A stretch of DNA of 5,145 bases from a virus (lineage: Duplodnaviria > Heunggongvirae > Uroviricota > Caudoviricetes), in IMG/VR virus record IMGVR_UViG_2778261065_000001, positions 1 to 5,145 of that record; one strand, given 5' to 3'. Position 1 is the first letter of the stretch, and the number at the start of each line of letters is the position of its first letter. The notes under the pieces were generated by a model. The model saw only the letters and a list, made by a program, of their open reading frames with translations, searched no databases and had not been told where the DNA came from. Below are positions 178 to 692 of the stretch, piece by piece. The position numbers and the translations under genes were made by a program.

Positions 178-244
178 TATATTTGATTATTTAATGTGCA
201 GGTACAATGACTTTTATTTTTTGTTGTGTATATAATCAAATATA
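178..244. repeat. 13-bp perfect inverted repeat (TATATTTGATTAT / ATAATCAAATATA) with 41-bp spacer in AT-rich intergenic DNA
   Basis: Read directly: 178..190 tatatttgattat is the exact reverse complement of 232..244 ataatcaaatata. The right arm contains a consensus TATAAT (231..236, plus strand). Confidence 0.6.
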
Positions 245-524: not shown

Positions 525-581
525 AGCCTGCTTCTCCTTGCCTTTCGGCACGTAAGAGGCTAACCTACATTTGTGAGACAT
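369..581 (-). CDS. mok: Mok-like in-frame leader ORF overlapping hok (modulator of killing), 70 aa
   Basis: Six-frame ORF 369..581; ATG at 581..579 preceded by GAGG at 593..590. The N-terminal extension MSHKCRLASYVPKGKEKQA resembles the MokC extension (MLNTCRVPLTDRKVKEKRA) as I remember it. Its start region is exactly where the predicted Sok RNA is antisense. Confidence 0.6.
   Translation of the reverse strand: MSHKCRLASYVPKGKEKQAMKQQKAMLIALIVICLTVIVTALVTRKDLCEVRIRTGQTEVAVFTAYEPEE
538..566 (+). promoter_or_regulatory. Putative sok promoter (-35 TTGCCT 538..543, 17-bp spacer, -10 TAACCT 561..566)
   Basis: Hexamers read on the plus strand, antisense to the hok start region. Same arrangement as the R1 sok promoter, which is embedded opposite the hok RBS. 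Predicted TSS about 573..575. Confidence 0.45.
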
Positions 582-645
582 AGATTGGGCCTCAGATTAA
601 TGTTAAGCGTCTTGCAGGACGCGTAATGTTAACTGGGGCTTTTCT
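573..645 (+). ncRNA. sok: Sok-like antisense RNA (type I antitoxin), about 70 nt
   Basis: Predicted from the promoter at 538..566. Single-stranded 5' tail about 573..588, then a long imperfect hairpin 589..639 (outer stem GCCUCAG/CUGGGGC with one G-U; inner stem closing on loop UUGCAG 612..617), then UUUUCU at 640..645. Antisense to the mok SD and start codon. Confidence 0.5.
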
Positions 646-692
646 CTGTCTGCCTTACAGTGGCATGCCCGAGGCAGACAGCCTCAAGCACC

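Follow-up and report, generated by a model that had tools for sequence, protein, structure and literature searches.

The prototype of the Sok antisense RNAs, from the parB locus of plasmid R1, has a single-stranded 5′ tail, one stem-loop, and a U-rich 3′ end, and it targets the mok translation-initiation region (PMC1635323). The hok/sok family is enriched in prophages (bioRxiv 10.1101/2025.08.07.668861), and the closest relative of the locus described here is the functional hokW-sokW pair (PMC8621323). The sokW RNA has been seen by northern blot and counteracts HokW (Takada et al., PMC8621323), and its antitoxin activity is partly RNase III- and Hfq-dependent (PMC8621323).

The window (the whole 5,145-nt stretch of DNA that was analyzed) contains at 538–648 (+) what appears, with a probability of about 0.9, to be a sok gene. 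It would belong to a type I toxin-antitoxin locus, hok/mok/sok, that is intact and lies in a lambdoid prophage of the Rac/933W kind. The host group of this prophage is E. coli/Shigella, and the neighboring genes make up a Rac-like prophage module (IstB/DnaC-like ATPase, DUF1627, DUF977, Ead/Ea22, and DUF551). At the locus itself hok, an in-frame mok with its Shine-Dalgarno (SD) sequence, the fold-back pairing, the terminator, and the Sok promoter, hairpin, and U tail are all intact (Table 1). The first-pass annotation had proposed a Sok-like antisense unit here from the letters of the sequence, and the segment is indeed collinear with three annotated or experimentally used Sok RNAs (sokW, K-12 sokC, and R1 Sok). 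The element is thus a routine close allele of a long-known antitoxin RNA, sokW, and as such is already known; only its allele-specific 5′ tail and its missing RefSeq annotation are new.

Table 1. Features of the hok/mok/sok locus, in positions of the window
Feature	Position	Strand	Basis or remark
Sok −35 box TTGCCT	538–543	+	Sequence; inside a stretch identical to 933W/Sp5 sokW
Sok −10 box TAACCT	561–566	+	Sequence; 17-nt spacer after the −35 box
Predicted Sok antisense RNA	573–648	+	Mapped from 933W sokW, K-12 sokC, and R1 Sok
Single-stranded 5′ tail, putative recognition element	573–588	+	First 14 nt unpaired in MFE and centroid folds
Long imperfect stem-loop, doubling as intrinsic-terminator hairpin	589–639	+	Fold and comparative data
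U-rich tail UUUUCUCU	640–647	+	Sequence; U-rich run after the hairpin in 48/48 distinct homologs
hok toxin gene (51 aa, identical to HokD)	369–524	−	SD GGAG at 537–534
mok (70 codons, in frame with hok)	369–581	−	ORF list and translation; AUG at 581–579
hok mRNA (5′ end at 693, leader, mok/hok coding region, 3′ fold-back, terminator)	278–693	−	
fbi-like 3′ fold-back element CCUCAACGCACCC	308–320	−	Pairs with mRNA 5′ end 693–681 in MFE and centroid folds
Sok-target hairpin in hok mRNA	562–586	−	Formed in full-length and local folds
Probable hok promoter −10 box TAAGAT	700–705	−	Sequence only; 6 nt upstream of the mRNA 5′ end

The toxin belongs to Pfam family HOK_GEF (PF01848; E 1.2e-23, 82.9 bits against a cutoff of 22), and the RefSeq product at a 98.5% identical locus is “toxin HokD.” The mok SD, GAGG at 593–590, lies 8 nt upstream of the mok AUG, a layout that matches those of the annotated mokW and mokC genes. 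When the 418-nt minus-strand transcript (693 to 276) is folded as a whole it is considerably more stable than expected (z −6.85), and its first ∼13 nt pair with 320–308 in the fold-back pairing typical of hok mRNAs; a terminator scan places the hok intrinsic terminator at 302–283. The TAAGAT hexamer is probably the hok promoter −10 box and is accompanied by a weak −35; the same position is occupied by TAGAAT in 933W and by TATAAT in K-12 hokC. Within the leader, the target hairpin carries the mok AUG in its 5′ arm and the complement of the Sok −10 box in its 3′ arm, and its loop, CUCACAA, contains a YUNR-type CUCA and complements the GUGAG at the start of Sok. By a crude MFE-folding test a YUNR loop motif is present in only 17 of 39 alleles.

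The minus strand also gives a strong match to Rfam family RF01794 (693 to 519; 118.1 bits against a gathering score of 59, E 2.4e-27, full model 1–157), which bears the name “sok.” This match was considered as a possible contradiction of a plus-strand Sok and rejected: the last part of the RF01794 consensus is the hok SD and AUG, which makes it a model of the sense-strand hok leader, and there is no conflict. Sub-threshold Rfam matches to isrK and rsmX at 280–365 fall far below their gathering scores, align only to the 3′ end of the hok mRNA, and were dismissed. Codon 47 of hok (384–386, −) is a Tyr UAC followed by G (GCUUACGAA), the UACG context in which TadA A-to-I editing is reported to change Tyr to Cys in hokB, hokC, hokD, and hokE (Hok diversity preprint).

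Several features flank the locus. The best match to the promoter consensus in the region is ATGACT-18-TATAAT at 207–236 (+), with 10 of 12 positions in agreement; this candidate is located immediately past the hok terminator and is directed at hok from the antisense strand. On the other side, a perfect, GC-rich, bidirectional terminator-like hairpin of 13–15 bp with an A run and a T run (862–894; −20.7 and −23.0 kcal/mol on the two strands) is situated between the hok promoter and the operon of the DUF551 gene and a 27-aa ORF, and probably insulates hok from read-through. Four sub-threshold Rfam matches at 792–900 (STnc30, PsrR1, Thr leader, and Betaproteobacteria toxic sRNA) are far below gathering scores; they align only to this terminator and were therefore dismissed. 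The hydrophobic 27-codon ORF (MTWPEAFTTAGIAMAVALMVYSICRWG; 899–982, −) overlaps the stop of the DUF551 gene (ATGA) and is matched by no Pfam family. An exact match to YO-432, a primer from the work on Sp5 hokW-sokW, lies at 966–988, so this small ORF is also a neighbor of hokW-sokW in Sp5.

Alignment with the three known RNAs suggests that the Sok transcript would begin at 573 and end between 643 and 649, for a length of ∼71–77 nt. A 22-nt A/U-rich stretch separates the −10 box from the inverted repeat on the plus strand, and the predicted 5′ tail of 14–16 nt complements both the mok AUG and the target-hairpin loop. The long imperfect hairpin that had been noticed at 589–639 comprises 24 bp with one bulged A, one 1×1 internal loop, and a UGCA loop, and the UUUUCU reported to follow it is found at 640–645 (+). 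At −28.9 kcal/mol (587–641, +) it is much more stable than shuffled sequence (mean −12.4; z −6.3), and none of 200 shuffles folds as well; the same segment on the minus strand reaches −17.8 kcal/mol. Folding of the RNA, which the first-pass annotation had named as a check, leaves 14 nt unpaired ahead of a −29.2 kcal/mol hairpin (573–643), and the known Sok architecture it had pointed to, a single-stranded tail, one stem-loop, and a U-tail, agrees with the description of R1 Sok (PMC1635323). The predicted RNA covers both GAGG 593–590 and AUG 581–579, and so is antisense to the mok SD and start codon, as had also been claimed.

The promoter needs a more careful reading. The −35 box had been described as the reverse complement of the hok SD region; this is true approximately and is not exact, as AGGCAA, the complement of TTGCCT, abuts the hok SD core GGAG (537–534) and overlaps AAGGAG by 2 nt. 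The two hexamers match the consensus at 4 of 6 (−35) and 3 of 6 (−10) positions, 7 of 12 in all, and a rule relaxed enough to admit them finds 56 equally good sites on the two strands of the 5145-nt window; by themselves they are not above chance level. A generic sigma-70/terminator scan of 200–1000 reports neither the Sok promoter nor the Sok terminator, the hairpin of the latter being missed because of its bulge. Thus, a promoter claim cannot rest on consensus strength, and the strength of the Sok promoter cannot be judged from its hexamers. Of the 48 distinct leaders compared, 47 have TTGCCT or TTGACC at the −35 place, followed by a TAxxxT-like or CAxTCT box; in the remaining one, L005, the −35 box is degraded. 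In an alignment of close alleles the −10 box is 96% conserved and the −35 box, −10 box, and hairpin are all 92–96% identical to the window. However, both boxes also sit within hok mRNA helices, the −35 box in an SD-adjacent hairpin and the −10 box in the 3′ arm of the target hairpin, so their conservation is confounded and is not evidence for promoter function alone.

The sokW study gives further information. Window positions 536–565, spanning the −35 box and spacer and the greater part of the −10 box, match the hok probe YO-597 of that study exactly, and its mutagenic primer YO-421 changes TAACCTA to GAGCCGG at the bases equivalent to 561–567. The proposed promoter is thus base for base the one tested in the sister phage, where the “pro-less” promoter mutant of Sp5 hokW-sokW loses its antitoxin activity (PMC8621323). 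As in other members of the family, the candidate promoter lies on the opposite strand inside the mok/hok leader, and its activity here is presumed by analogy with these sokW experiments (PMC8621323).

A Hok protein scan of one genome per species (genera Escherichia, Shigella, Kluyvera, Citrobacter, Pseudocitrobacter, Photorhabdus, Pantoea, and Erwinia) yielded 53 loci, which together with 933W and the window gave 48 distinct leaders. A GCCUC...GGGGC hairpin followed by a U-rich run is present in all 48, and in every one its Sok-strand version is more stable than the hok-strand version (means −19.0 vs. −11.0 kcal/mol). When 27 distinct hairpins are aligned, pairing is seen in 92.7% of cells, as opposed to 34–49% when the partners are slid; seven pairs show compensatory changes on both sides, and the observed covariation score is reached by none of 500 shuffles. 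Across the hairpins, 85 G·U pairs, which work on the plus strand only, stand against three A·C; one U·G is invariant in 27/27, and its minus-strand counterpart would be a mismatched C·A. The strand bias, the covariation, and the G·U excess together argue for selection of the hairpin on the plus strand, in an antisense RNA, beyond its being the complement of the mRNA. They bear on the idea that the structure of the minus-strand hok leader alone accounts for the conservation of the hairpin and its flanks, there being no antisense transcript and the hexamers being chance occurrences. That RF01794 is a model of the minus-strand leader with the complementary hairpin included, and that the chance-level Sok boxes both lie inside hok mRNA helices, would suit such an explanation, but it leaves unaccounted for the 11 kcal/mol by which the window's hairpin is better on the plus strand, the same direction of difference in 48/48 homologs, the G·U pairs, the plus-strand U tract after the hairpin in every homolog, and the fact that an identical promoter yields sokW RNA in Sp5 (PMC8621323). 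It is therefore very improbable.

The hairpin and U tract are terminator-shaped, and with the promoter-like ATGACT-18-TATAAT at 207–236 (+) to their left they might be thought to serve mainly as a terminator or insulator against read-through from that side and not as part of an antitoxin RNA. Such a role would not explain why conserved promoter boxes stand at a fixed distance from the hairpin, why the segment is collinear with sokW, sokC, and R1 Sok, or why the homologous segment has antitoxin activity (PMC8621323), and we find it scarcely credible as the main function. An antisense Sok RNA whose hairpin also terminates its own transcription is the preferred reading.

If the locus works as its relatives do, a constitutive sigma-70 promoter (TTGCCT, 17 nt, TAACCT) inside the hok leader on the opposite strand would drive synthesis of a ∼71–77 nt Sok transcript that starts at about 573 and ends in the U tract past the hairpin. 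Its tail (GUGAGACAUAGAUUGG) would nucleate pairing at the target hairpin, on its loop and 5′ arm, in hok mRNA that has been 3′-processed and refolded, and the duplex would then spread across the mok AUG (581–579) and SD (593–590); mok translation would thereby be blocked and, through translational coupling, that of hok as well, and RNase III would cleave the duplex. When the unstable Sok is no longer made, on prophage loss or induction, the stable hok mRNA would be translated and Hok would damage the inner membrane. Complementarity between Sok and its target is a given for any cis-antisense pair. The steps of this scheme, including Sok expression and instability, neutralization of Hok, and RNase III cleavage, are modeled solely on the homologs sokW (PMC8621323) and R1 Sok (PMC1635323). 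By the same analogy the biological role could be prophage maintenance or help with lysis on induction; the latter has been reported for Sp5 hokW-sokW.

It could also be that sok is real by descent but that the locus has decayed or fallen silent, as several chromosomal hok loci of K-12 have, with Sok inconsequential or with neither RNA of any importance. The chromosomal hokA, hokB, and hokC loci gave no post-segregational killing in earlier work, whose authors suggested that the loci are inactive (summarized in bioRxiv 10.1101/2025.08.07.668861), so function in the present host is not guaranteed; in addition, the hok promoter has a poor −35 box as judged from its sequence, and K-12-type hokD (L006) has lost the whole leader. 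On the other hand, every element of the present locus is intact, its closest relative works (PMC8621323), and the Sok unit is at least 99% identical in 418 E. coli records. We consider decay unlikely, though less so than the two explanations above, and a functional sok remains our preferred reading.

Of 5426 complete E. coli genomes, 4289 contain a match to the 115-nt Sok unit. E. coli ECMA0423 and S. flexneri SFBU1023 each have a 181-nt sok region that is 100% identical to that of the window; over 250–720 none of the complete E. coli genomes matches the window exactly, the best reaching 98.5% identity. Among the matches listed, no annotated feature underlies the 115-nt Sok unit. At loci with a Sok region identical to that of the window (for example, 5121–5276 of L001, from E. 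coli AVS0790) RefSeq gives the hokD CDS only, with no mok or sok, unlike 933W (1999) and K-12, where both are annotated. The name of RF01794 is a trap for automated annotation here, since the model describes the hok leader and a match puts “sok” on the wrong strand at more than twice its real length. The Pas-sRNA preprint does no more than cite the hokW paper and has nothing on the present locus. Biologically the locus is routine; its family is found in most E. coli genomes, and the locus matters mostly for annotation: placing the antitoxin at 573 to about 648 (+) helps the interpretation of RNA-seq data from prophage regions and also aids the design of anti-Sok oligomers and the engineering of prophage-cured strains.

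Other arrangements were seen among the homologs. Three K-12-type hokD loci (L006, L027, and L043) share the coding region with the window, but similarity ends at or just upstream of the hok SD, and they are without the mok start, Sok promoter, Sok hairpin, and hok leader, a truncated, antitoxin-less arrangement. Tandem hok/sok leaders spaced about 565–630 nt apart are present in an Enterobacteriaceae isolate (L028; about 750–940 and 1328–1505), where the two Sok 5′ tails differ, and in Photorhabdus temperata (L036; about 1354–1495 and 1983–2125). Near-identical E. coli-type hokD/sok also turns up in assemblies labeled Acinetobacter idrijaensis and Xanthomonas pisi, where the contigs concerned are very short, as well as in a gut MAG and a record named “Actinobacillus phage vB_Apl-pPE4” (L017, L022, L055; H36); these odd-host records probably reflect contamination or mislabeling and not real host range.

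The most variable part of Sok is its 5′ tail, which in close alleles is only 62% identical to the window compared with 95% for the hairpin. More than one hok/sok copy is common in E. coli, with a median of 2 and as many as 9 in a genome, and E. coli ECMA0423 has three sok-bearing paralogs (L004, L005, and L012) with three different tails, although the −35 box of L005 is degraded. The three tails fit with a tentative proposal, for which we would give somewhat less than even odds, that the Sok tail and target loop (573–588) form an allele-specific address that keeps resident hok/sok copies orthogonal. If so, neither sokW-type RNAs nor any other resident Sok would silence the GUGAGAC allele of the window. 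As part of the same proposal, the 18-nt extension at the hairpin tip might tune Sok, for instance its half-life or its Hfq or RNase III dependence.

Among the known systems, sokW of 933W and Sp5/VT2-Sakai is the most similar: the window is 92% identical to it over about 450 nt, and the leaders align without gaps. The −35 box, spacer, and −10 box are the same in both, a single loop base distinguishes the two hairpins, and they share the U tail. In 933W, hokW, mokW, and “SokW antisense RNA” are annotated, the last as a misc_RNA that maps to window 573–643, and its mokW, like the window's mok, has 70 codons and is in frame with hok; both loci lie in lambdoid prophages. The differences lie in the 5′ tail of Sok, GUGAGACAUAGAUUGG in the window and GUUCAGCAUGGAUUGA in sokW (GUGAGAC... 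vs. GUUCAGC..., with differences at 6 of 30 probe positions), and thus also in the mok start region; in the toxin, which is identical to HokD in the window and is HokW in 933W/Sp5; and in the phage backbone, which unlike that of 933W/Sp5 has a Rac-like ydaU/V/W replication module with DUF551 and Ead/Ea22.

The other two systems are more distant. R1 Sok, whose ends are taken from the primers used for in-vitro transcription (PMC1635323), begins with ACUAGACAUAGG, which aligns to GUGAGACAUAGA at window position 573, and its 3′ end corresponds to about 648; its tail shares AGACAUAG with the window. It is a 64-nt RNA with an 11-nt 5′ tail, whereas the window's Sok would be about 71–77 nt long with a tail of 14–16 nt. 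The 5′–3′ fold-back pairing is common to the R1 and window hok mRNAs. The sokC RNA of K-12 begins at the base equivalent to 573, lying 9 nt within mokC, as in the window, and has the same GCCUC...GGGGC lower stem and UUUUCUCU tail, but its boxes are TTGACC/CACTCT in place of TTGCCT/TAACCT. The hairpin of sokC has 33 nt and that of the window 51; the extra 18 nt form a GCGUC-UUGCAG-GACGC mini-helix at the tip, which is also absent from the shorter R1 hairpin and is found in HokD/HokW-like alleles and in some Kluyvera relatives. The mok gene is in frame with hok in K-12 as in the window; in R1 it is out of frame. Finally, R1 is a plasmid, and the window locus resides in a prophage.
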